Origin: Clostridia bacterium
GTDB taxonomy: Bacteria; Bacillota; Clostridia; Oscillospirales; CAG-382
Direction: 5' to 3'
Assembly (NCBI GenBank): GCA_017399965.1
Contig: JAFQAP010000018.1
Coordinates: 11,546-75,545, forward strand
DNA length: 64,000 nt
In this document: piece after piece, positions 2,452 through 44,648 of the stretch
Layout of the letters: every line of letters begins with the position of its first letter
How positions within the stretch are numbered: position 1 is the first letter of the stretch
Notes under the pieces: generated by a model
Database searches by the model: none
Told to the model about the DNA's origin: nothing
What the model saw: only the letters and a program-made list of their open reading frames with translations
Made by a program: the position numbers and the translations under genes

Positions 2452-2775
2452 TCAAATATAAATCAAAAATTGCTCTTCGGGATCGCAACCGTTGATTTCT
2501 GATATGGTAACTTCGTCCCAAATATCAAAAAGAGATCTTCCGTCAAACACTTTTGCAAACACAAACTCTTCAAAGGTGCAGTATTCAAATGCATTGTCGC
2601 CATCCTCGGTGAGTCCGAACCAATATAAATCTGCTTTCGACTTTTCTTCGGGCATTTTGCCCATCCAGCAAGAACTAAATTTCCCGCAATCTTTTACCGA
2701 AAAAGCAATTTCAAGGCAGTACGTTCCTTTTGTTTCGAATGCCATCAGTTGTTTGAACTGCTCAAATGTTATCAT
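2452..2775 (-). CDS. hypothetical small cytoplasmic protein (107 aa)
   Basis: ORF with an upstream GGAAAGGAAA-type RBS, packed between the GNAT and methyltransferase genes. Confidence 0.5.
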   Translation of the reverse strand: MITFEQFKQLMAFETKGTYCLEIAFSVKDCGKFSSCWMGKMPEEKSKADLYWFGLTEDGDNAFEYCTFEEFVFAKVFDGRSLFDIWDEVTISEINGCDPEEQFLIYI

Positions 2776-2800
2776 TTTAGTTTTCCTTTCTTTTTCTTAT

Positions 2801-3412
2801 TCACATCATCGGCAACCTGAAAATCATTATCCGTTCACGGCGGTCGTTGCCCTCGAACAGGTCGGTACAATCAATCTCATCGTAAAATTCCAGTTCGTCA
2901 ACCGTCATAAGATAACCTATATATTCGTCCGTGGGGTAATAGAAAAACAAAAGTATTTCTCTTGGATCCCCATAATAGGATTCAATTATCCTCGCCATAA
3001 CTTTGCGGAGTATCTCCACGGAAAATGGGTTGAAGAAATAGCATCTGTTGACACCGGACAAAACCTTATATTCCTCCGCCCTTGTTAAAACAATATCCGT
3101 TTTTGCTGTTTTTACCGCTGTTTTTTGGTTTTCCAAGGCGGTTTTATATATGTGCTCATCGTATTCGATACCCACAGCGGATACTTTTGTGCGGGAGGAA
3201 AGAAAAAATCCCACCCTGCCTTTTCCGCAGCCGTAGTCCAAAACCACATCATCTTGCCCGAAAAAGCCGCTGTCCGCCAGACGCTCCAAAACGGTATATG
3301 GCGTGGGCTCGTATGGAAAACGGTAGTTATCGGAATTGGTATCGTCCCGACCGCTTGTTTTTATTTGCAAAAGCTTATCCCAAGTGTTTTCGTTATCTGT
3401 AGTTCTTTGCAT
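2801..3412 (-). CDS. class I SAM-dependent methyltransferase
   Basis: Motif I 'VLDYGCGKGRVGFFL'. Size is typical of small-molecule or RNA methyltransferases. Confidence 0.75.
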   Translation of the reverse strand: MQRTTDNENTWDKLLQIKTSGRDDTNSDNYRFPYEPTPYTVLERLADSGFFGQDDVVLDYGCGKGRVGFFLSSRTKVSAVGIEYDEHIYKTALENQKTAVKTAKTDIVLTRAEEYKVLSGVNRCYFFNPFSVEILRKVMARIIESYYGDPREILLFFYYPTDEYIGYLMTVDELEFYDEIDCTDLFEGNDRRERIMIFRLPMM

Positions 3413-3438
3413 CAGTCTGTTTTCCTTTTGCGGGCATT

Positions 3439-4200
3439 CTATGCCTTTTTATCGGGAGCGTATTTGCGTAAAATTTCCATAATATCGCACCGATACACGT
3501 TGCCGCCGAGAACATCGCCGTTTGGAGAAAAAGATATGCAGCGGATATCAAACGGGTCTTCTGTATATGGGTTTTCAGGGCGGTTTTCCGTAAAATATTC
3601 GGCAAGATATTTGAGCGCGTTTCCTTCGGGAAAAACTATATTTCCGTCGTTTTCCCGAATTTGCATATCCGCAAAGCTTTCAAGTATTTCCCGTGTTTTG
3701 AGGTTATACGTGTTATCGTCATCACGGCTTACCAGCCACGCGGGCTGTAATCTTATGGGAATACCGCAGTTTTTTGCCTCTTTCGCAAAAAGCTTTACCG
3801 TTTCGAGCGGAAGCGTTTCCTGATGAAACGCATCCACAGACAAAAGCAGGTCGTTTACGCCGCATTTTGAAAGGTTTTCCGCCACTTTCCGTATATTATG
3901 CGCATCCTTTGAAAAACAGCCGTTGGTAATTATCTGCCGTTTGGGAATATTCATTTCAAAAGCGGCGCTCATTATCTCACACGCCGTATCCGCGTACAAA
4001 AGCGGCTCTCCGCCGAACACCATTACGGTTTTGATGTTGTATTCCGCGGATATTTTTCTCACTGCGTCTGCTGCTTTCAGCGGATCGATATGTTCGCCGT
4101 AACAAGCGTGCTCCCCTTCCGAGCAATGCTTACACCGTCCCGTGCAGGCATATGTTACGGCAAATTCTATTTTGTTCAGATTTTTAAGATATTGGTTCAT
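3439..4200 (-). CDS. radical SAM protein (no SPASM extension seen)
   Basis: CxxxCxxC cluster 'CTGRCKHC' at aa 19-26. 'VFGGEPLL' GGE motif. Confidence 0.8.
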   Translation of the reverse strand: MNQYLKNLNKIEFAVTYACTGRCKHCSEGEHACYGEHIDPLKAADAVRKISAEYNIKTVMVFGGEPLLYADTACEIMSAAFEMNIPKRQIITNGCFSKDAHNIRKVAENLSKCGVNDLLLSVDAFHQETLPLETVKLFAKEAKNCGIPIRLQPAWLVSRDDDNTYNLKTREILESFADMQIRENDGNIVFPEGNALKYLAEYFTENRPENPYTEDPFDIRCISFSPNGDVLGGNVYRCDIMEILRKYAPDKKA

Positions 4201-4227
4201 ATTTTCCCGCTGCTTGTCACCTTGAAG

Positions 4228-4890
4228 TTATATCTTTATGATTTTTAATATTTGTTCTTCGGTTGCCGAAGCGAACAGCTTTTTAAAGTGTTGGATGATC
4301 TTTTGCTTGGATTGGGAAGGGTTGGTTTTGTATGCAGAGGTAACATAGTCATACCCAAAGAAATGTTCGAGTGTGGTATACTGCGCCACCCCCCAGCCGT
4401 AAGGCTTTCCGTGTTTGTCCTGCATATAAACAAAATCCGCCACGCAAACGTAGCTTTGCATCTGAAGCCGTGTAATAACGGTATCGAATCCTTTGTTACC
4501 GCCCTTGACGTAGTTACAAGCCGTTTTAAGATCCTTTGAAAGAATAACCTCTTGTTTGGCGATGGCTTCAAACAGTTCTTTGTCCTTATAAAACACCAAT
4601 CCGTCGTCGCAACGGGAATCAAAATCGTATCCATCGCGGCGGTAGTTGGCAAAATGAGGCACCCATGCTTTGCTTACAAATCCCGCTTTGCCGCCGAAAA
4701 GCTTTCCATAGATACATCTTCCGCTTTTGGCGGCGGGACCTTTCCATTCCCACGGGCCGTCAAGATCGGTAAACCACAGTTCGGACGGGCACATTTCTTC
4801 TACCGAAAAGCCTTTTATTGAATTTTTGAAAAACGGCAGAAATCCGTATTCTTCCACTGCTTCCAGCAGTTGGTCCACACTCCGCAGCAT
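4228..4890 (-). CDS. hypothetical protein, possibly AlkZ-related / winged-helix family
   Basis: 220 aa. 'GFLPFFKNSIKGFSVEEM...DGPWEWKGP' resembles short AlkZ-related proteins from memory only. Confidence 0.4.
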   Translation of the reverse strand: MLRSVDQLLEAVEEYGFLPFFKNSIKGFSVEEMCPSELWFTDLDGPWEWKGPAAKSGRCIYGKLFGGKAGFVSKAWVPHFANYRRDGYDFDSRCDDGLVFYKDKELFEAIAKQEVILSKDLKTACNYVKGGNKGFDTVITRLQMQSYVCVADFVYMQDKHGKPYGWGVAQYTTLEHFFGYDYVTSAYKTNPSQSKQKIIQHFKKLFASATEEQILKIIKI

Positions 4891-4946
4891 TTTATCCCCT
4901 TACTTTCGTAATCTTTATTTTTGCGGTTCAAGTACCATTTCAGCCT

Positions 4947-5336
4947 CTATTTAACTATCTCGTACTGCCAATCAATAATACCGCCGAACTCTTTTACGTT
5001 GGTATAACCCAATTTCACAAGCTCCTCGGATGCTATTTTGCTCCGCCTGCCGCTGCGGCAGTAAACCAGAATAAGAATATCCTTTTGAGGAATGAGCGAA
5101 GGAGCTTTTTGTGCTATTTCGTATTCGGGAATAAGAATTGCGCCTTCTATATGTCCGCCTGCAAACTCTTCTTCTGTACGGGCATCTATGATAATGTAAT
5201 CGGTTTGAGTATCCATAATTTCCTTGGCTTTTTCTTGGGAGATCTGCTCATAAGATGCGTTGTTTCCTCCGCAGGAAAACAAATTAAGAACCGAAGCAGA
5301 GATCAAAAACATAATAAACCATCCTTTTATTTTCAT
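4947..5336 (-). CDS. rhodanese-like sulfurtransferase domain lipoprotein
   Basis: Lipobox 'LNLFSCGG'. Active-site loop 'CRSGRRS'. ATG at 5336 lies 6 nt after AAGGTGA. Confidence 0.8.
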   Translation of the reverse strand: MKIKGWFIMFLISASVLNLFSCGGNNASYEQISQEKAKEIMDTQTDYIIIDARTEEEFAGGHIEGAILIPEYEIAQKAPSLIPQKDILILVYCRSGRRSKIASEELVKLGYTNVKEFGGIIDWQYEIVK

Positions 5337-5353
5337 AGGTATCACCTTGATTT

Positions 5354-6211
5354 TTATATCTTTTTTATAGGTAAAAGCATTCTTGTTTGCTTTTTATAAA
5401 GAGAGAAGCCTTCTTTGCGGGATTGTCTGCCGTCTGCCAACGGGATACTTACCGCAAGGAAAAGCACGGTGTTTGCAAGCGCACCGGAAAGAAGATACCA
5501 GACATCGGGAGCAGCGCAGACCACCGCCAGACCTACTCCCCACCACATTAAGATCTCGCCCAGATAATTGGGGTGGCGGGAATATTTCCAGAGTCCGTTT
5601 CGAATAAAACTACCGTTTCGGTTTCGTCTGAATTTATGCATCTGAATATCTGCGATCCCCTGCATTGTTGCCGCACCCAAAGAAAGACAAAGGAGCAAAA
5701 CGCTTGCGAAATCTGCATCAATGCCATCTCTCACCGCATATACCGAGGGAAGAATGCACCCGTAAACCACCAAAGTAGGCACCATATGTATACCAATGAA
5801 ATTTATAATGGGATAAAACATCCCCGTTTTTTCACACAGCATGGTGTAACGCCAGTCCTGATGGCACAGATCTTTAAAGGTGTACGCCCAGTTGGCGGTA
5901 AGACGGATCCCCCAAAAGAATACGGAAATTAAAAGCAGAATACCAAAGGCACTAAGCTCTTTTCCAACTGCAAATGCAGCTAATATTACAGGTGGCTGTA
6001 CGCTCCAATACGGGTCGTATACCGATGCGTTTTTGAATATAAGGCTGAAAACAAAAGTAAACACAGTGGCGGCGGTATCTGCAACAAGCAGGGACAGCCA
6101 CCAATCAAAGGGTAGGCTTCTGTATACCCACACACCAACAATGCCCGCCAAAATATATACCAGAGCCAGAATAACAAAGCTTAACGGGCGATTTTTCTTT
6201 AGTGTTTCCAT
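5354..6211 (-). CDS. DUF1295 / steroid 5-alpha-reductase-like membrane protein
   Basis: Multi-TM protein. C-terminal 'YSRHPNYLGEILMWWG' signature. ATG at 6211 follows AGAGGTG. Confidence 0.7.
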   Translation of the reverse strand: METLKKNRPLSFVILALVYILAGIVGVWVYRSLPFDWWLSLLVADTAATVFTFVFSLIFKNASVYDPYWSVQPPVILAAFAVGKELSAFGILLLISVFFWGIRLTANWAYTFKDLCHQDWRYTMLCEKTGMFYPIINFIGIHMVPTLVVYGCILPSVYAVRDGIDADFASVLLLCLSLGAATMQGIADIQMHKFRRNRNGSFIRNGLWKYSRHPNYLGEILMWWGVGLAVVCAAPDVWYLLSGALANTVLFLAVSIPLADGRQSRKEGFSLYKKQTRMLLPIKKI

Positions 6212-6285
6212 AAATAACACCTCTTTACGATTAGACGGCGCCGAAAGTATAAGGTAAAATAATAATATGATTAAGCCGTATTTAT

Positions 6286-7506
6286 TTAAGGTTTCTTTAT
6301 ACTTAAGTTAAGACCCAAAGCTATTACCGCCAAAGATAGCAACAATGCAAAGGGAACGGTATATCCCTCTGTCGCCGTTAATATAGATGAACATGCAGTG
6401 GCAACGAAAGATGCAAACATAAGGTTAAAGTTCATAACGCCGAGATTTGCGGCAAAATGCTTTGTACCGTAAAATGCCGACGTAAATACAGATGCTACGG
6501 TAGGAGATGCGCCGTAGGACATACCTGTAAGGCAAAGTCCCGCAATGCACAAAGGCAGAGAGTTTACGCTTACCGCAATAAGAGTTGTTCCTGCGGCGAT
6601 TATGGTAAGAATATTTGCGCCAATCATAGTGAAACGTCTGCCCATGGTATCGAATACCGCGCCTGTAATAATTCTGCCCAGACCGTTGCAAACGGCAAGC
6701 ACTCCTACCAGGGTGGTTGCAAGCGCCGCTTCTGCGCCCACTGAAACTGCAAGATCTCTGGCGAAACTGATAACGGAATTACCCACTGCCGTAATACAAA
6801 CAAGAAATATGAAAGCCCGCCAGAAGGTAAAGGTTTTTATCATTTCTGTGGGTTTATAGTCCTTTATTTCAAAAGCTTCCGTTGCTGCCTTTGTACGCTT
6901 TTTGGGTGCAGGAAAAACAACATCTGCATTGGGACGCTTTATAAACAATGCCGAAACGCAAACAACCGCCCCAAGAGCTATTCCCAGAATTATATAAGTC
7001 GCTCTCCAGCCTATACTGCTTTTAAACAGCGCATCCGCAAGGTTACCCAATATCAAACTGCTGGCACCGAAGCCCATCATAAGCGCACCGGAGGACAAGC
7101 CCTTTTTGTCAGGAAACCAAGAGTTAACGGTAGATATGATCAATATATACGCCATTCCGATTCCCAATCCCGACATAAGCGCATAAGTAACGAAAATAAG
7201 CAGTGTTTGACCGTCTTTTAAAAAGCTTGTAAGTATAAATCCCACTCCTGCAAGAACGCCGGAAATAAGAATGGAAAAACGTATTCCAATCTTCTTGGAA
7301 AGCCAGCTCGAACCGAGACCGCCAAGGCAGAAAAAGCTCATCGTAAGCGTAAAGTTTAGGGCAAGCGAATCTGCAGTAAAGCCAAGTTCAGATGCAAAAG
7401 GCACTTTAAGAATGGACCACGCATAGATAATACCTGCAAAAAGCATTGTTATAACTCCTACGGCAAGTATAAACCATCTGTAATTCAAAGCTTTATTTTT
7501 ACTCAT
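6286..7506 (-). CDS. MFS transporter (oxalate/formate antiporter-like subfamily)
   Basis: About 12 TM segments. N-terminus 'NYRWFILAVGVITMLFAGIIYAWS'. ATG at 7506 follows GGAGGTG. Confidence 0.75.
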   Translation of the reverse strand: MSKNKALNYRWFILAVGVITMLFAGIIYAWSILKVPFASELGFTADSLALNFTLTMSFFCLGGLGSSWLSKKIGIRFSILISGVLAGVGFILTSFLKDGQTLLIFVTYALMSGLGIGMAYILIISTVNSWFPDKKGLSSGALMMGFGASSLILGNLADALFKSSIGWRATYIILGIALGAVVCVSALFIKRPNADVVFPAPKKRTKAATEAFEIKDYKPTEMIKTFTFWRAFIFLVCITAVGNSVISFARDLAVSVGAEAALATTLVGVLAVCNGLGRIITGAVFDTMGRRFTMIGANILTIIAAGTTLIAVSVNSLPLCIAGLCLTGMSYGASPTVASVFTSAFYGTKHFAANLGVMNFNLMFASFVATACSSILTATEGYTVPFALLLSLAVIALGLNLSIKKP

Positions 7507-7609
7507 ATAACACACCTCCGTTTTAAATATAATATCATTTACTGTATGTTTTTGTCAACATACAATAATTGTATCGGTGCAAAAACATGTTTTTCACTTT
7601 TTGTAAACA

Positions 7610-7638
7610 TTGACAACTTTAAAAGCTTGTGTTAAACT
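7610..7638 (+). promoter_or_regulatory. sigma-A type promoter of the DHHW gene
   Basis: TTGACA (7610-7615), 17-nt spacer, TAAACT (7633-7638), with an extended -10 TG at 7630-7631. Confidence 0.6.
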
Positions 7639-7680
7639 GCTTAAAAGAAAAGTAAAAAACTTGACCACGAGGCGTAAAAT

Positions 7681-8970
7681 ATGAAAAAATCCGCATTACT
7701 TTCTGTTGTGTTCCTGCTTGCCTTCGCTTTGTTGTTTGGATGTGTGGCGGCAGTGGATGGCGATTCTTCAAAAGAGCCCTCCGATAGCACAAGCAGCCCG
7801 CAGGTATCCGAAGATATTTCTAATGAGATATCCAAAGAAGAATCCTTGCAAGGAAGTCTGCCCGATGATACTTCGACAGAAAGTGAAGAAAACGATATGT
7901 CACAAGAAATATCTTACACAGAAAAAGAAGAGTCTTCGGAAGCGAGCGAAGAGATAAGTGTTCCCGCAGATGAAGAATCCACATACATTCCTCCCGAAGA
8001 ATCCTCTGCGCCTCCCGAAGAATCCTCGGAGCAGCCGCCGGAAGAATCGTCCGTGCCCGAAGAGATATACACCGATGCGGGAGATGCGGAATTTATCCCA
8101 TCCGGTTATCTGCTGTATGACGGGGCGGCATATTCCCAAGCTTATTTTAACAAGCGTGTTTCTCAAAGATATGCAGATGCATACGTAAAATACACCCAGA
8201 CCTTTCCCGGCGTACGCATTACTGCAATCAACCACCCCGCAAATTCCATAAATATTAAAAACCCCTATGTGCAGGCGATGCTTAATGACCAAGGCAAAGT
8301 ATTGGACGATATGGCATCCGTTATGTACGGCGACGTAAACTATATCAACCTGAGAAGCACATTCGAAAAGCATAAAGGCGAATATCTGTTTTTCAAGAGC
8401 GATTTTCACTGGACACAGTTGGGCGCATATTACACCTACTGCGAATATGCAAAATCCGTAGGTCTTACTCCCACTCCTCTTTCCGCGTTTGAAGACCGTG
8501 TGCTCACCACAGAATTTATCGGTCTTACCAACATTTATGCCCAGGATGAACGGGTAAACACCTTTTATGACACCTTGCACGCATATATGCCCCGCAAGAA
8601 ACACACTTATACGATATATTACGACGCAGAGAAAAACATTAAAGGACAATACGAGACCTGCGTGCATACGAATATAGAAACCTATTCCTGCTTCTTGATC
8701 GGCGACCAGCCTTATGCAGAGATAGTCGTTCCCGAAAACGATCAAAGCAAGGTGGTTTTGGTGATAAAAGAATCCTCGGGCAACGCATTCGTTCCTTTTC
8801 TTATCGAACATTACGGAAAGATAATAGTCATCGACCCCAGACATATCGATATCGACATCCGTCCTCTGGTAAAAAATGAAGGCGTAGACGATATAATCCT
8901 CTTTGCCACCGCATCCACCTCCAACGGCGACGCATATTGCAACTATTATTTAAAGCTGATCGGCGAATAA
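7681..8970 (+). CDS. DHHW-family lipoprotein (AlgJ/AlgX-like SGNH fold), motif variant DFHW
   Basis: Lipobox 'ALLFGC'. Ser/Glu/Pro-rich linker. 'FFKSDFHWTQLGAYY'. Paralog of 28645-29916. Confidence 0.75.
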   Translation: MKKSALLSVVFLLAFALLFGCVAAVDGDSSKEPSDSTSSPQVSEDISNEISKEESLQGSLPDDTSTESEENDMSQEISYTEKEESSEASEEISVPADEESTYIPPEESSAPPEESSEQPPEESSVPEEIYTDAGDAEFIPSGYLLYDGAAYSQAYFNKRVSQRYADAYVKYTQTFPGVRITAINHPANSINIKNPYVQAMLNDQGKVLDDMASVMYGDVNYINLRSTFEKHKGEYLFFKSDFHWTQLGAYYTYCEYAKSVGLTPTPLSAFEDRVLTTEFIGLTNIYAQDERVNTFYDTLHAYMPRKKHTYTIYYDAEKNIKGQYETCVHTNIETYSCFLIGDQPYAEIVVPENDQSKVVLVIKESSGNAFVPFLIEHYGKIIVIDPRHIDIDIRPLVKNEGVDDIILFATASTSNGDAYCNYYLKLIGE

Positions 8971-28644: not shown

Positions 28645-29916
28645 TCAGTCTATAAGTCCTGCGAAATATCTGTTCCACGCGCCGGTGTTGCCCATGGACG
28701 AGTTCACAAGGAAAAGAATGTCATCAAACTCATAATCAGCAAACTTTTCGCATACGTTGAGGTTTCCCGCATAACGGGGGTCAACCACAACTATATTGCC
28801 GTAATGCTCGGTAAGAAAAGGAATAAATGCGTTTGCATAGGAATCCTTAATGACCATAATGCTCTTGTCCTGGTCGTTTTCGGGGACGTTGATGATCATA
28901 TAAGGATGGTCGCCGCCGATGAACGCAGGATACCCCTTAATAGAGGTAACGATGCAGGTTTTATATGTTAATACTCCGCTGCTGCCGCTGTGTATGGTCA
29001 TGGTACACGCTTTTCTGGGCATATAGGCTTCGATGGTATCATAATAAGACTTTACACGCGCATCCTTGGTGTAGTTGTACATAGAACCGATATATTTATC
29101 TCTTATAATTTGAATATCAAATTCCTCTATGGGTGTGGGTTCAAGACCTATGGAGCGTACGAATTCCACATATGCGTAATATGCGCCCCGCTGTGTCCAG
29201 TGGTGGTCGCTTCTGAAATAAAGATATTCGTCCAAATGGTCGGCATATGCGTTTTTAAGGTTTACGAAATTAATGTTTTCATTGGTGATAGCCGCTTCCA
29301 TTTTATCCAAAATGGCGCTTTGGCTGGATATACGGGCGTTAACGTCGGGGTCGGTAATAATTATCGTTGCAAGAGGTGCAATAACCACGTTTATACGGGA
29401 TTCGGGGAAAACTTCGGCGTATTTATCGTAAACAGCGGCATATTTGGGCGCTTGAGTAGCGCTGAAAAAGGACTGCGTATACGCCGCGCCGTTATACAAA
29501 ACGAAGCCGCCGTCAAGATATATTGCGTTACCGATCTCCACATGGCCCGGTTCGGATGTTTCGGGTTCGGATGTTTCCGGTTTAGATGTTTCGGGTTCGG
29601 ATGTTTCCGGTTTAGATGTTTCCGGTTTGGATTCTTCGGGCTTGGATTCTTCGGGAACAGATACTTCTTCGGAAACTTCTTCGGAAACTTCTTCGGATAT
29701 TTCTTCGCTTATCTCTTGGGAAACATCCGTGCTTTCGGTTTCTTCGGAAATATCGCTGTCTTCAGGCAGAGAAACTTCGCTTTGTTCCGGTTCACTTTCC
29801 GCAGAGGAAATGTCTTGCGAAACCGTATCGGGAATTGATGTATTTGTATTGCTGTCGCACCCCGAAAATGAAAGAATGAGCAAAAACAGCAAAAGAGATG
29901 CGGTGATCTTTTTCAT
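28645..29916 (-). CDS. DHHW-family lipoprotein (AlgJ/AlgX-like SGNH fold)
   Basis: Lipobox 'LSFSGC'. Repetitive acidic linker. 'YFRSDHHWTQRGAYYAY'. Confidence 0.8.
   Translation of the reverse strand: MKKITASLLLFLLILSFSGCDSNTNTSIPDTVSQDISSAESEPEQSEVSLPEDSDISEETESTDVSQEISEEISEEVSEEVSEEVSVPEESKPEESKPETSKPETSEPETSKPETSEPETSEPGHVEIGNAIYLDGGFVLYNGAAYTQSFFSATQAPKYAAVYDKYAEVFPESRINVVIAPLATIIITDPDVNARISSQSAILDKMEAAITNENINFVNLKNAYADHLDEYLYFRSDHHWTQRGAYYAYVEFVRSIGLEPTPIEEFDIQIIRDKYIGSMYNYTKDARVKSYYDTIEAYMPRKACTMTIHSGSSGVLTYKTCIVTSIKGYPAFIGGDHPYMIINVPENDQDKSIMVIKDSYANAFIPFLTEHYGNIVVVDPRYAGNLNVCEKFADYEFDDILFLVNSSMGNTGAWNRYFAGLID
29550..29654 (-). repeat. in-frame 15-bp tandem repeat x7 (E-[ET]-S-[KE]-P), followed by 12-bp repeats to about 29715
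   Basis: GGTTCGGATGTTTCG-type units encode 'EESKPEESKPETSKPETSEPETSKPETSEPETSEP'. 29663-29715 encodes 'EISEEISEEVSEEVSEEVS'. Confidence 0.9.
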
Positions 29917-36604: not shown

Positions 36605-37459
36605 ATGCCAACATTTACAAACACAGCAACGCTTTCTTACAACGGCGGCACTGTTAATTCAAATACGGTCTCCGGAACGATACAAGAGGTACTGTCTATT
36701 ACAAAGACTGCCGTTAACAATAATTATTCCGTAGGAGATAACGTAACCTACGTTGTAAGCTTGTTAAACACCGGAACCACACCTTTTACAAACGTTACCC
36801 TGACTGACGATATGGGCGGTTTTCTTTGCAACACATCCACGGTATACCCCTTGGAATATAATGATGGCACCGTCAGATATTATGTAAACGGAATTCTTCA
36901 AGAGCCTCCCGCAGTTACGGAAAATGGCTCTGTTGTTTTTTCAGGTCTTACCGTACCTGCCGAAGGCAACGCAATGCTGGTTTACGAAGCAACAGTAACA
37001 CCTTCCGCACCTCCCCAAAGCGGCGGACTCATAAACAACGTGGTAACCGCGAACGGAACGGGTATACCCGCAAGCTTGACCGATACAGCTACCATTTCCG
37101 CACTTGACGAGCCTCAACTTACAATAAGTAAGGCTGTATGTCCTTCCGTAGTGAGTGCAAACGGAACACTGACTTATACCTTCACGATACAGAATACCGG
37201 CAACGTGGACGCCGTAGCAACCGATAATATAGTGGTTACCGATACCTTTGATCCCGCTATCAATATTACCTCGGTAACCTACAACGGCACACCCTGGACT
37301 TCCCCCGCAAACTACACCTACAGCAATATTACAGGTCAGTTTGCCACGGTTTTGGGTCAGATAACCGTTCCTGCCGCCATCTACGAGCAGGATGCCGCCT
37401 GCGGCTGGGTAGTAACTCCCGGTGTGAGCACAATAACCGTAACGGGAACGATTCAATAA
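36605..37459 (+). CDS. DUF11 (conserved repeat domain) protein, two repeats, no signal peptide
   Basis: 'LSITKTAVNNNYSVGDNVTYVVSLLNTGTTPFTNVTLTD' and 'LTISKAVCPSVVSANGTLTYTFTIQNTGNVDAVATDNIVVTD'. Confidence 0.7.
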   Translation: MPTFTNTATLSYNGGTVNSNTVSGTIQEVLSITKTAVNNNYSVGDNVTYVVSLLNTGTTPFTNVTLTDDMGGFLCNTSTVYPLEYNDGTVRYYVNGILQEPPAVTENGSVVFSGLTVPAEGNAMLVYEATVTPSAPPQSGGLINNVVTANGTGIPASLTDTATISALDEPQLTISKAVCPSVVSANGTLTYTFTIQNTGNVDAVATDNIVVTDTFDPAINITSVTYNGTPWTSPANYTYSNITGQFATVLGQITVPAAIYEQDAACGWVVTPGVSTITVTGTIQ

Positions 37460-37641
37460 CTAAGTTTGCCCTCAAGGGGCAAGTGAAGTTTACTTCGTAA
37501 GTGAAGTTATCCTGCGGATAGTGAAGTTTTGCCTGTGGCAAAGTTGGGCGTTCTCGTAGTGGGCAAACTTAACTTCACTTGGGCGATAGCCCAAACTTCA
37601 CTGCACAGCAACTTCACTTTCGCGTAAAGCGAAAATTTCAC
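37459..37641. repeat. mirror-symmetric octamer / mini-hairpin array
   Basis: GTGAAGTT at 37483, 37501 and 37521. AACTTCAC at 37571, 37594 and 37610. A different perfect mini-palindrome sits in each interval. Confidence 0.9.
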
Positions 37642-37650
37642 AAACCACGA

Positions 37651-37682
37651 TAAAAATCCCCACGATGTGTGGGGATTTTTGT
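37651..37682. terminator. bidirectional rho-independent terminator
   Basis: AAAAATCCCCAC-gatg-TGTGGGGATTTTTGT between convergent genes. Confidence 0.85.
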
Positions 37683-37695: not shown

Positions 37696-39315
37696 CTATT
37701 CGGGAAGTATATCCGTAAACATTAAAAGGTTGGTCGTTACAGCTTCTCTCTCGGTAACGGGTGTGAAGGTGCCGTCGGCATACAGAATATCCATTACCAT
37801 TATTGCAACAGAATTGCTGATAAATCCGCCTACCTCGTATGCGGTGATAAGATCCTGCATCTGGGGAGGATACTGCTTTCCGATCATTGCGGCGTATTCC
37901 AAAGCAAAGGGGGCAACCTTTTCTTTGTAGCATTCCTCAAGCTCGGGAATCTTGGAGAAAAATTCGTTATAATCGCCCCTTACGAGCATTATGTTAACCT
38001 CATCGTCTTCGGTGATAAACTGTCTTTCCTTAAGGCGGGCAAACTTTTCCGCGTTTGCTTCGTTTTTTGTAAGAGTGCCGTTCAAAAGCTCGTATACGTA
38101 TTCGTAATCCGAGGTAGGGTTGTTCATCCAATAGCCCTTGCGGGAGGAAAGGCGGGAATCTATGGACCAAGAATATACTGCGGGATATTTATCCGACCAG
38201 CGGTTCATATTGCCGCACGCGCCGTAGTTCCACGGTTCTACAGTAGTCTTATAATCGGGATCGGAGGGTTGCGCGTTGCAGTTAACATTGGCGATAAAGT
38301 TACCTCCCGCGGTGGTTTTGATATAATACTTGCTTAGGTCCTTGCCGGTATTGATACAGCATTTGTTGGCAACACCGTAAAATACTGCCGCCGCCGCCAA
38401 AAGCTGTCTGTTGCCCGTGGGGATATATACGTCGGTTACGTCCTTTATTGCTTCGATGATCCTGGGCGCGTATTCCTTTGCAAGGGTTTGGGCAAGCTCG
38501 CGCTGAAGAATAATTCTCCTTTCCTCAAGCTCCAAGGAATACTCGGTGGGATCGAATTGAACGTAAGTGGTGTATTTGCCGTCGGACTGCTTTACAAGGA
38601 AGCCGTTTTCTTCCAGAAATGCTATTTTATCCTCGATATACACGGGAGTAACGCCGAGCTCTTCGGCGATCTCATCTGCGGTTTTGGGTTCAAAATACAC
38701 GCTGTAAACTATATTGCAGTTAAGCTTATCGCCGAGATAAAATTCGGGTCCGTCGTTTGAACCGGGGTTACCGTTGTGTCCGAAACCGGTGGGGATATAA
38801 GGGGATATGCCGAGAGTTCCTATTTTTCTTTCCATTGTAAAATTCTCCTTTAGTTCATTTCTCGCTTTGTTAAGATGCCATTTTACCGTGCCTTCGGGAA
38901 TGGCGAGTTTTTTTGAAATATTGGAAACAGTTTCGTTTTCGTAATAAAAAAGATAAACAATTTGTCTGCGGGTCTTGGTTAAAAAAGCTACCTCTCGGCG
39001 AAGGCGGAAAAGGTCTTCATCCGGATCTTCAAGAGAATAATCCTCGTAATAGGGTAAAATTTCGTTATCCAAAGAAACGCCTTCGGCTTTCTTTTTGCGG
39101 GAAACGTACTTTGAATAGGTATAATTGCTTATACGCCAGATATAGCCTTCTATATTGGCAATATAATCCGCTTTGAGCAGAGATAAATATACCTCCTGAA
39201 TTATATCCGAGCAAAGGTCCTCTGCCTCATCAAAGGAAAAAGACTTTTTTACCGCAAAGCCGTAGATCTTTTGCAGATATTCGGTTATGATTTTGTCTGC
39301 TGTTTGTTTATCCAT
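37696..39315 (-). CDS. sigma-70 (ECF-like) factor fused to a wHTH-like segment and a roughly 250-aa C-terminal domain
   Basis: Region 2 'DLCSDIIQEVYLSL'. Region 4 'ETVSNISKKLAIPEGTVKWHLNKARNELKE'. No TM segment in the 539 aa. Confidence 0.75.
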   Translation of the reverse strand: MDKQTADKIITEYLQKIYGFAVKKSFSFDEAEDLCSDIIQEVYLSLLKADYIANIEGYIWRISNYTYSKYVSRKKKAEGVSLDNEILPYYEDYSLEDPDEDLFRLRREVAFLTKTRRQIVYLFYYENETVSNISKKLAIPEGTVKWHLNKARNELKENFTMERKIGTLGISPYIPTGFGHNGNPGSNDGPEFYLGDKLNCNIVYSVYFEPKTADEIAEELGVTPVYIEDKIAFLEENGFLVKQSDGKYTTYVQFDPTEYSLELEERRIILQRELAQTLAKEYAPRIIEAIKDVTDVYIPTGNRQLLAAAAVFYGVANKCCINTGKDLSKYYIKTTAGGNFIANVNCNAQPSDPDYKTTVEPWNYGACGNMNRWSDKYPAVYSWSIDSRLSSRKGYWMNNPTSDYEYVYELLNGTLTKNEANAEKFARLKERQFITEDDEVNIMLVRGDYNEFFSKIPELEECYKEKVAPFALEYAAMIGKQYPPQMQDLITAYEVGGFISNSVAIMVMDILYADGTFTPVTEREAVTTNLLMFTDILPE

Positions 39316-44364: not shown

Positions 44365-44648
44365 ATTTATTAAACCGTTGATGCGGAGATAAAAACAAAA
44401 CACGCCTTTACAGAGAGTCTGCGCAGCTGAGATGCAGGCAAGAAACAGTTTGTTAAATGGACCGCGGAGGGCGCAGTCAAATGTGCATATACTGTACAGA
44501 GTATTCTGCGACGTGGGGACATGCGTAAGTTGTCGGGAATATGCAGTATTCCGAAAAGAGCACGGCTTTGCCGTGAATCAAGGTGGCACCGCGAATAAAA
44601 ACAATTATTCGTCCTTGGCAGATGGTATATTTCTGCCAAGGATTTTTA
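44365..44648 (+). promoter_or_regulatory. T-box riboswitch leader, Trp specifier (UGG)
   Basis: AGAGAG bay. Specifier 'AAAUGGA' (UGG at 44458-44460). T-box 'AATCAAGGTGGCACCGCG' (44576-44593). Terminator CCTTGGCAGA/TCTGCCAAGG (44613-44641) plus a T-run. Confidence 0.88.

Follow-up and report, generated by a model that had tools for sequence, protein, structure and literature searches.

The window analysed here, a stretch of 64,000 nucleotides (64 kb) from a Clostridia bacterium (contig JAFQAP010000018.1), holds between the stop codon of a gene for a DUF11 repeat protein (37457-37459) and a terminator-like hairpin a block of short repeated words alternating with small palindromes. A first-pass annotation, made from the sequence alone, had seen in it a mirror-symmetric array of mini-hairpins belonging to no described motif class. 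This last point has to be given up: the left half of the block is the Gut-1 RNA motif (Rfam RF01706), and the whole is a variant member of that catalogued family, not a new class of motif. We lean, a little beyond even confidence, towards seeing it as one inserted copy of a dispersed non-coding repeat, comparable to the repetitive extragenic palindromic (REP) and bacterial interspersed mosaic (BIME) elements, which would here be co-transcribed as a rod-forming part of the DUF11 3′ untranslated region (UTR). The locus is laid out as follows.

36605-37459, + strand: gene of a DUF11/DUF7507 repeat protein of 284 amino acids (open reading frame, ORF, with Pfam matches); upstream flanking context, outside the element
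37458-37471, + strand: 5′ box AACTAAGTTTGCCC, comprising the start of the element, h0 (ACTAAGT, a degenerate heptamer) and hairpin 1's 5′ arm
37466-37482, + strand: hairpin 1, TTGCCC-tcaag-GGGCAA (shuffle test; 5 of 5 helix pairs changed on both sides)
37483-37527, + strand: left array (heptamer site search, Rfam Gut-1 alignment, covariation)
37483, 37501 and 37521, + strand: GTGAAGT heptamers of the left array
37490-37500, + strand: hairpin 2, TTAC-ttc-GTAA
37508-37520, + strand: hairpin 3, TATCC-tgc-GGATA
37528-37550, + strand: hairpin 4, TTTGCC-tgt-GGCAAA, with its tail GTTGGGCG; the conserved 3′ module of a Gut-1 array
37551-37560, + strand: variable central filler, some 13 nt longer in the window than in the orthologous copy L367 (L with a number labels a comparison locus)
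37561-37571, + strand: centre box GGGCAAACTTA, a copy of the 3′ arm of hairpin 1 joined to the complement of h0
37572-37641, + strand: right array, the mirror of a Gut-1 array (Rfam minus-strand match, shuffle test)
37572, 37595 and 37611, with ATTTCAC at 37635, + strand: ACTTCAC heptamers of the right array
Within the right array, + strand: hairpins 5 (TTGGGC-gata-GCCCAA), 6 (TGC-aca-GCA) and 7 (TTTCGC-gtaaa-GCGAAA)
37651-37682: bidirectional terminator-like hairpin (A5-TCCCCAC...GTGGGGA-T5), a 12-nt perfect inverted repeat; part of the locus, not of the element
37696-39315, minus strand: convergent gene of 539 amino acids, with an extracytoplasmic function (ECF)-type sigma-70 N-terminus and a long C-terminal extension; downstream flanking context

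The coordinates and the two-level symmetry given in the first-pass annotation are exact to the base. The octamer GTGAAGTT stands on the + strand at 37483, 37501 and 37521 and its complement AACTTCAC at 37571, 37594 and 37610, with degenerate copies ACTAAGTT at 37459, GCAAAGTT at 37538 and AATTTCAC at 37634. All six exact copies of the octamer or its complement in the 64 kb fall inside the block, as do all six occurrences of GTGAAGT/ACTTCAC, and the dinucleotide-shuffle test that had been proposed for these counts leaves the observed octamer count above the shuffles, which yield 1.4 on average and 4 at most (0 of 100 reach 6). The six short spacers are each a perfect palindrome anchored at both ends, with stems of 3-6 bp; when they are shuffled with the heptamers held fixed, the P value per spacer lies between 0.0003 and 0.015 and the joint P is about 1e-16. 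A seventh palindrome, TTTGCC/GGCAAA (37528-37542), opens the long central spacer, and a relation missed in the first-pass annotation links the two ends of the left half, where TAAGTTTGCCC (37461-37471) is perfectly complementary to GGGCAAACTTA (37561-37571). When the window is scanned for heptamers of any sequence that recur three or more times around palindromic spacers, this element is the only result.

These shuffle tests rule out chance or low complexity as the origin of the block, and several familiar objects can be set aside as well. It is not a coding repeat, as its heptamers, 18, 20, 23 and 16 nt apart, do not keep to multiples of three and it is overlapped solely by short minus-strand ORFs of 44 and 70 amino acids. 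Neither is it an intrinsic terminator: none of its seven hairpins is followed by a run of T, as had been observed at the outset, and the single match of a terminator scan within it (minus strand, at hairpin 1) also lacks one; the terminator-like hairpin of the locus is that at 37651-37682, which the simple scan did not list. Arrays of clustered regularly interspaced short palindromic repeats (CRISPR) have repeats of at least about 21 nt, unique non-palindromic spacers and cas genes, and here the repeat is of 7-9 nt, the spacers are palindromes of 9-17 nt and the array is mirrored; the seven ORFs scanned with Pfam at 32.4-42.6 kb contain no Cas family, two of them being without any match.

The assignment to Gut-1 rests on a local search in which the Rfam model matches positions 37457-37532 of the + strand with 47.8 bits (E 1e-8). 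The alignment spans all 77 positions of the model, its three stems all pair, and the heptamers match the consensus but for a single G in place of A, reading GUGAAGU where the known forms read GUGAAAU or GUGAUAU. The model covers the left half alone; the right half matches it on the minus strand (37571-37643, 28.9 bits). Near-identical sister copies pass the curated gathering score of 50 bits (L022 with 55.3, L060 with 52 and 51, L249 with 61.9 and L353 with 77.5), and in L022 hairpins 2-4 are identical to those of the window. From other Rfam families there were weak terminator-like matches (rimP, Phe leader) at the neighbouring hairpin, and nothing more.

Gut-1 was described in 2010 by Weinberg and colleagues as a set of three short hairpins, free in sequence, with a constant GUGAAAU-type heptamer between them and on either side, and was rated 'certainly RNA, not cis-regulatory'; human gut metagenomes were then its only source, no sequenced organism being known to have it, and no function was proposed (PMC2864571). 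Seeds of the accompanying Stockholm file, such as BAAZ01000095, carry three GUGAUAU units and, beyond them in the flank, AUAUCAC units (PMC2864571): the mirror array is already in the 2010 data, unremarked in the paper's note on Gut-1. The window copy shares with the published motif the full alignment, the alternation of hairpins and heptamers, the gut habitat and the covarying hairpins. It differs in its heptamer, and the 2010 description is without the inverted right array, the fourth hairpin with its tail, the helix between 5′ box and centre box, the spread in multiple copies, the host taxa and the link to PF05635 genes that are set out below. A full-text literature search returned nothing on Gut-1 later than the 2010 paper, and none of the additional features just listed appears in any other paper that it found.

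That covarying hairpins should be looked for had been suggested from the start, and the compensatory changes are there. When 35 left domains from three heptamer families are aligned, all 13 hairpin pairs are changed on both sides and none varies on one side only; 95.4% of the aligned cells are paired, against 61% in shuffles (0 of 500 reach the observed value) and 34-44% in controls where the rows were slid. The comparison of these sequences indicates that the hairpin structure is under selection. G.U pairs occupy 2 of the 453 cells of this alignment, and the 152 distinct spacer units hold 749 Watson-Crick, 6 G.T and 8 A.C pairs. Being almost purely Watson-Crick, the stems would pair equally well on either strand, and the loops are restricted to C(TNY)G on the GTGAAGT strand, corresponding to C(RNA)G or GNNA on the other.

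The family to which the block belongs can be drawn from a pattern scan, with one genome per species, that returned at least 120 loci. Among the matches listed, mirror arrays occur at about 35 loci, nearly all in metagenome-assembled genomes (MAGs) of gut or rumen Clostridia (Oscillospiraceae, Acutalibacteraceae, Christensenellaceae, 'Eubacteriales', Ca. Scatosoma), and all 35 doublets on genome contigs have the GTGAAGT array before the ACTTCAC array. The basic unit of Gut-1 is a set of 3-4 copies of a family-specific heptamer, each with a short hairpin of free sequence after it. In the consensus doublet, AACTAAGT and hairpin 1 are followed by three units of GTGAAGT plus hairpin, then by a conserved fourth hairpin with its tail (GTTG..) and by the centre box, which repeats the 3′ arm of hairpin 1 and complements the 5′ box, and finally by three or four units of ACTTCAC plus hairpin. 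The 5′ box is kept as (C)AACTAAGT plus the arm across some 30 copies, its 11 nt at 37461-71 in the window being those that complement the centre box. A three-way covariation ties box, 3′ arm and centre box together in several subfamilies as well as in two further heptamer families: GTGAAGT elements have as variants TTGCCC/GGGCAA, TCGCC/GGCGA, GCGCC/GGCGC, GTTCCGC/GCGGAAC and GTGCC/GGCAC, and the boxes of other heptamer families hold quite different 11-mers. The 3′ module has the consensus of a hairpin plus AGTTGMGG(TCG); it also ends the solo arrays L014, L088, L093, L079 and L030 and is present in the Weinberg seed sequences.

Solo arrays of this kind, which lack an inverted partner, are common in genomes that also have doublets and are the form modelled by Rfam. 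As many of them keep the same heptamers, pairing between left and right octamers, which had been put forward for the block, cannot be what conserves these words. The same layout recurs with GTGAAAT, GTGATAT and TCGATAT, and by eye with ATGAAAT, so that there are at least four heptamer families and probably five; two of them lie 1.2 kb apart in L071. At L496 (about 3250-3480) a second doublet, equipped with a terminator hairpin and a 5′ box of its own, uses the fifth heptamer, ATGAAAT/ATTTCAT; it lies directly after a MazG-like gene and before a TATAAT box and the gene of a 1168-amino-acid Big_2 protein. Several MAGs contribute several copies each. Near-identical copies stand at unrelated loci (L061, L022), and contigs often break inside the element (for example L361, L362, L003 and L051). 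An all-against-all blastp of the ORFs flanking 31 doublets, among the matches listed, revealed no gene family common to their neighbourhoods. Elements with a 5′ box (L081, L084, L390, L420, L454, L490, L496, L509) often start directly after an intrinsic terminator (..TTTTTC AAC, then the box), and in at least 5 of 128 arrays the preceding terminator is that of a tRNA gene, the tRNAs being of different kinds. Another short clostridial repeat, of type GTCATTCTGAGCTTGTCGAAGAATC, recurs near Gut-1 arrays or interrupts them (L074 at about 230-300, L042 at about 2150-2216, where it cuts hairpin 4, and L102 at about 240-300). The resemblance of the heptamer to several known words (the decoding-site GUGAAGU of 16S rRNA, half a parS site, box A of P1 ParB, the heptads of omega protein) was judged to be probably coincidental, given that families differ in their heptamer and that hairpins stand between the sites.

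The history of the element at this locus can be read from its orthologues. The synteny of DUF4855, DUF11 and sigma-like genes is conserved and the element is not, the sigma-like gene being in place at every orthologous locus, element present or not. Three lineages have the element: the window itself, to which the following DUF11 identities refer, L361/L362 (82%), where contigs end inside it, and L367 (69%). Five are without it: L366 (91%), L359/L360 (89%), L363/L364 (74%), L365 (73%) and L368 (64%). At the empty site of L368 a terminator like that of the window follows immediately after the DUF11 stop codon, so that the window looks like such a site with some 180 nt inserted. All differences between the copies of the window and L367 are in loops or in the centre. 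Absence at five orthologous loci thus speaks for an insertion and not for a device of the DUF11 gene. The closest homologue of the DUF11 protein of the window, 99% identical, is from a Ruminococcaceae MAG. Its convergent neighbour keeps a length of 539 amino acids across all orthologous loci, and combines an ECF-type sigma-70 domain (about residues 1-160) with a C-terminal extension of about 380 residues that has weak helix-turn-helix (HTH) matches.

The placement of the block between the DUF11 stop codon and the terminator-like hairpin, which the copy in L367 shares, makes it probably a part of the DUF11 3′UTR, as had been surmised. L060, L002 and L075 (pyrB) have the last heptamer directly followed by the ribosome-binding site of the gene downstream, so that transcripts must cross the element there. 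GTGAAGT-sense arrays have their upstream gene on the same strand in a ratio of 26:9, the downstream gene being unbiased (17:15), and a manual tally of tandem-gene contexts gives about 12:4. Transcription of the element is, from such genomic contexts, likely. As RNA, the window copy is predicted to reach -68.2 kcal/mol as a rod in which left and right heptamers pair and the hairpins are extruded, against -55.1 kcal/mol when the helix of 5′ box and centre box is enforced and -43.3 kcal/mol with local hairpins alone. The pairing of octamers with hairpins extruded at the junctions, imagined in the first-pass annotation, is thus the predicted minimum-energy fold, and the rod likewise comes out as the minimum for each of the ten doublets tested, with a gain of 18-29 kcal/mol over local hairpins alone. 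The 11-bp helix of 5′ box and centre box, P0, can in the folding model close the left domain, and then excludes hairpin 1.

We can therefore understand the element as an insertion, between the DUF11 stop codon and a pre-existing terminator, that would have taken place in part of the lineage and would hold no locus-specific job. It would act as single-stranded nucleic acid, the heptamers at the feet of the hairpins probably being words recognised by a factor that acts in trans to maintain or spread the family, on the model of the GTAG word of REP elements and the REP-associated tyrosine transposases (RAYT). Its RNA would collapse into a rod of about 190 nt, with three heptamer helices of 7-9 bp and, at every junction, one hairpin standing out to either side. 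Its effect would probably be passive, a stable 3′ structure shielding the end of the mRNA and insulating the convergent transcription units, and the rod might be a target of a double-strand RNase. A number of points weigh against this account. The window copy is 2.2 bits under the Rfam cut-off, and a search of the whole window at the gathering score omits it. No clean insertion boundary can be drawn, the whole intergenic stretch differing between filled and empty sites, no target-site duplication was visible by inspection of the flanks of some 30 copies, and no mobilising enzyme was found among the flanking ORFs clustered or scanned. Copies within one genome share heptamers and boxes and not hairpins, so that simple copy-and-paste is insufficient to explain them. 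Both transcription and the rod are predicted. Doublets of the GTGAAAT family have on one side a strong terminator hairpin, in many cases belonging to a tRNA gene, and on the other a TATAAT box; this region may be poorly transcribed, which would favour a role at the DNA level there. The rod, finally, may be incidental, as solo arrays need no pairing of left with right.

Some classical vehicles of insertion can be dismissed. The mirror-like ends recall a miniature inverted-repeat transposable element (MITE), but there is no target-site duplication and filled and empty sites differ over the whole spacer. A composite transposon does not fit the paired arrays, which in L074 flank housekeeping genes (thyA, folA, a tRNA synthetase), in L008 recO and an Mrr-like gene, and in L231 two rare phage ORFs. 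A blastn of phage and plasmid reference collections gave no match that would point to such an origin, and in two scans of viral contigs most matches were coding repeats or due to chance, a few (L231, L249, L353, L148) being true copies. The contig of L231 is of phage, as witnessed by a terminase large subunit (PHROGs) and a weak Pfam match to an SPP1 portal; at 3845-8058 two inverted Gut-1 doublets bracket a 3.8-kb module on the opposite strand, with two ORFs of 634 and 288 amino acids that match no family and have two homologues only, both in phages, and the Rfam family GP20-b matches at 4684-4743.

The only recurrent partner of these arrays is a gene of family PF05635, a four-helix bundle annotated as '23S rRNA intervening sequence protein', which is found downstream of many doublets. 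Over 95 array-bearing loci (700 kb), each of the seven PF05635 genes directly adjoins a doublet at its right end and is oriented away from it, in four heptamer families. A reciprocal test with three PF05635 proteins led to 30 places with at least five different upstream contexts. Among the 15 places where the upstream sequence was read, 13 have a doublet (two of them cut at the contig start) and the other two are short contigs that begin inside or after the element, so that all 15 agree; most show the succession of terminator hairpin, doublet, TATAAT box, PF05635 gene and small MazG-like gene. The subfamily is very abundant, one sequence being indexed in 644 blocks of the collection. In L489-L508 (about 1501-2177 or 2501-3177) the PF05635 gene runs into the beginning of a MazG/pyrophosphatase-like gene of 108-110 amino acids; the two form an operon, which stands behind three different tRNAs, a PDDEXK gene and serine-recombinase genes. 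In L060 (1061-1960) the gene after that of PF05635 encodes a 299-amino-acid protein with HTH_3 and T5orf172 (GIY-YIG-like) domains, and L046 has a homologue in the same position, both loci being of the GTGAAGT family.

These neighbourhoods suggest a quite different account, in which Gut-1 arrays and stand-alone Avd-like PF05635 proteins would be the two halves of one unrecognised system and the unit would be terminator hairpin, doublet and PF05635 gene together. The protein, expected to be oligomeric, would read the heptamers at the hairpin feet, in RNA or in single-stranded DNA, and would in this way maintain, move or control a small selfish module whose landing places are next to terminators and tRNA genes; an orphan doublet like that of the window would be its non-autonomous offspring, served in trans. 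Avd forms a pentamer and binds nucleic acid. PF05635 is regarded as resembling Avd, a protein of diversity-generating retroelements (DGR) (PMC10053308), and this resemblance speaks for the idea together with the adjacency in all cases and across families. Yet in the sampled loci the gene accompanies about 7 of about 50 doublets and no solo array, no PF05635 gene occurs in the 64-kb window, and adjacency could reflect a shared 'moron' cassette. Nor does the sequence of the protein track the heptamer family: the PF05635 proteins of L060 and L002, both with GTGAAGT, are 50% identical, while that of L002 is 58% identical to partners of GTGAAAT and GTGATAT arrays. We regard such a system as rather unlikely for the moment.

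A purely DNA-level element, be it a REPIN-like mobile repeat (REPIN, REP doublet forming hairpins) or a protein-binding array of single-stranded hairpins or duplex heptamers, with RNA irrelevant, is another possibility that we find doubtful. It would account for the perfect two-fold symmetry of the design, for stems in which G.T is not in excess over A.C, for the insertion polymorphism and assembly breaks, for the doublet of one family placed between terminator and promoter-like box, and for discrete heptamer families that coexist in one genome, as REPIN families do with their own RAYTs; the loops of the ACTTCAC strand, C(RNA)G and C(GNNA)G, moreover resemble those of the very stable DNA mini-hairpin d(GCGAAGC). 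Against it, heptamers spaced by 16-24 nt are a poor fit for cooperative binding to duplex DNA and stems of 3-6 bp are too short for extrusion from it; no Y1/HUH or other transposase was met among the flanking ORFs clustered or scanned, about 8 kb per locus; the arrays are biased in orientation relative to the upstream gene, and several copies lie inside obligate transcripts. On the + strand, moreover, P0 tolerates G.T (4 G.T against 1 A.C in a manual count over correctly registered rows), and so do the right heptamers, with ACTTCAT variants. Were the element instead a stand-alone small-RNA gene, a protein sponge showing single-stranded GUGAAGU between hairpins in the manner of CsrB or RsmZ, one would understand the strict conservation of heptamers beside variable hairpins, the rating given in 2010 (PMC2864571), and the many copies that, following a terminator, would be outside the upstream mRNA. 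The stems, however, are without the wobble signature of a single RNA strand, the words of the doublet are predicted to be masked by their complements, presence varies among close relatives, and no promoter was found in the block, nor does one lie in the interval that separates the element from the stop codon or terminator before it; we hold this to be improbable. As for a cis-regulatory 3′UTR device of the DUF11 gene, or an operator for the sigma-like protein, towards which the first-pass annotation had leaned, the block does start directly after the DUF11 stop and before a terminator shared with the sigma-like gene. But near-identical copies have unrelated neighbours, none conserved across copies, in dozens of genomes, and the element is missing from relatives that keep both flanking genes, the two closest included, which was the very observation that the annotation had named as telling against a role specific to the locus. 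This last idea is very improbable indeed.

It is worth placing an inserted, dispersed Gut-1 repeat among the systems that it recalls, what is said of the latter being general knowledge. Like the REP/BIME and REPIN-RAYT elements of Proteobacteria, it is built of short palindromic units lying between genes, each hairpin having at its foot a conserved single-stranded word; it occurs as singlets and inverted doublets, both in the same MAGs and in several copies per MAG, and lies mostly 3′ of genes or between convergent genes, probably co-transcribed, with several families per genome. It differs in that each half of a doublet is an array of 3-4 different hairpins and not one, that hairpin sequences are not conserved among the copies of one genome (L005 and L112, from one MAG, share heptamers and 5′ box and differ in their hairpins), that the hosts are Clostridia, and that no RAYT-type gene is among the flanking ORFs clustered or scanned, a survey of the same 8 kb or so per locus. 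The BOX elements of Streptococcus pneumoniae, with Correia and enterobacterial repetitive intergenic consensus (ERIC) elements, are similarly modular and intergenic, variable in their number of internal units, partially complementary end to end, and co-transcribed into stable RNA structures; BOX modules are conserved in sequence, whereas Gut-1 keeps only words of 7-9 nt and boxes, its spacers covarying freely. The intervening sequences of 23S rRNA with a PF05635 ORF put the same protein family beside a self-complementary, RNA-forming element, in or next to highly transcribed RNA genes, as Gut-1 is often found just after a tRNA gene, but their arms flank the ORF inside the rRNA, while those of Gut-1 are together upstream of the ORF and outside rRNA. 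With CsrB and RsmZ the likeness is a short motif in several copies, displayed along a row of hairpins; in Gut-1 the motif is between the hairpins, not in their loops, and is predicted to be base-paired in the doublet. We know of no binding protein for it.

Elsewhere in the window, a T-box leader (RF00230) at 44369-44619 on the + strand, with 97.9 bits for a gathering score of 93, is the sole Rfam family above its cut-off. A quasi-mirror within a short tandem repeat at 29573-29688, with GTTTCCG three times and CGGAAAC twice, was considered as a further Gut-1 array and rejected; it lies inside a minus-strand ORF of 423 amino acids (28645-29916), its spacers are not palindromic, and it is a coding repeat.

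For the DUF11 gene the outcome is an ordinary one, a passenger repeat in its 3′UTR. For Gut-1 it is of more consequence. From the window and the loci akin to it, Ruminococcaceae/Oscillospiraceae, Acutalibacteraceae, Christensenellaceae and related gut and rumen Clostridia emerge as hosts of a motif whose full anatomy is about twice the size of the Rfam model, and which behaves as a dispersed, insertion-polymorphic repeat rather than as a single-copy gene for a small RNA; its presence also explains some of the breaks in assemblies of gut MAGs. The Avd-like PF05635 gene is a concrete candidate for a partner, and the best lead, with which an old orphan motif becomes experimentally approachable. 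If the two did prove to form one system, it would provide a first function for two abundant families of unassigned role.

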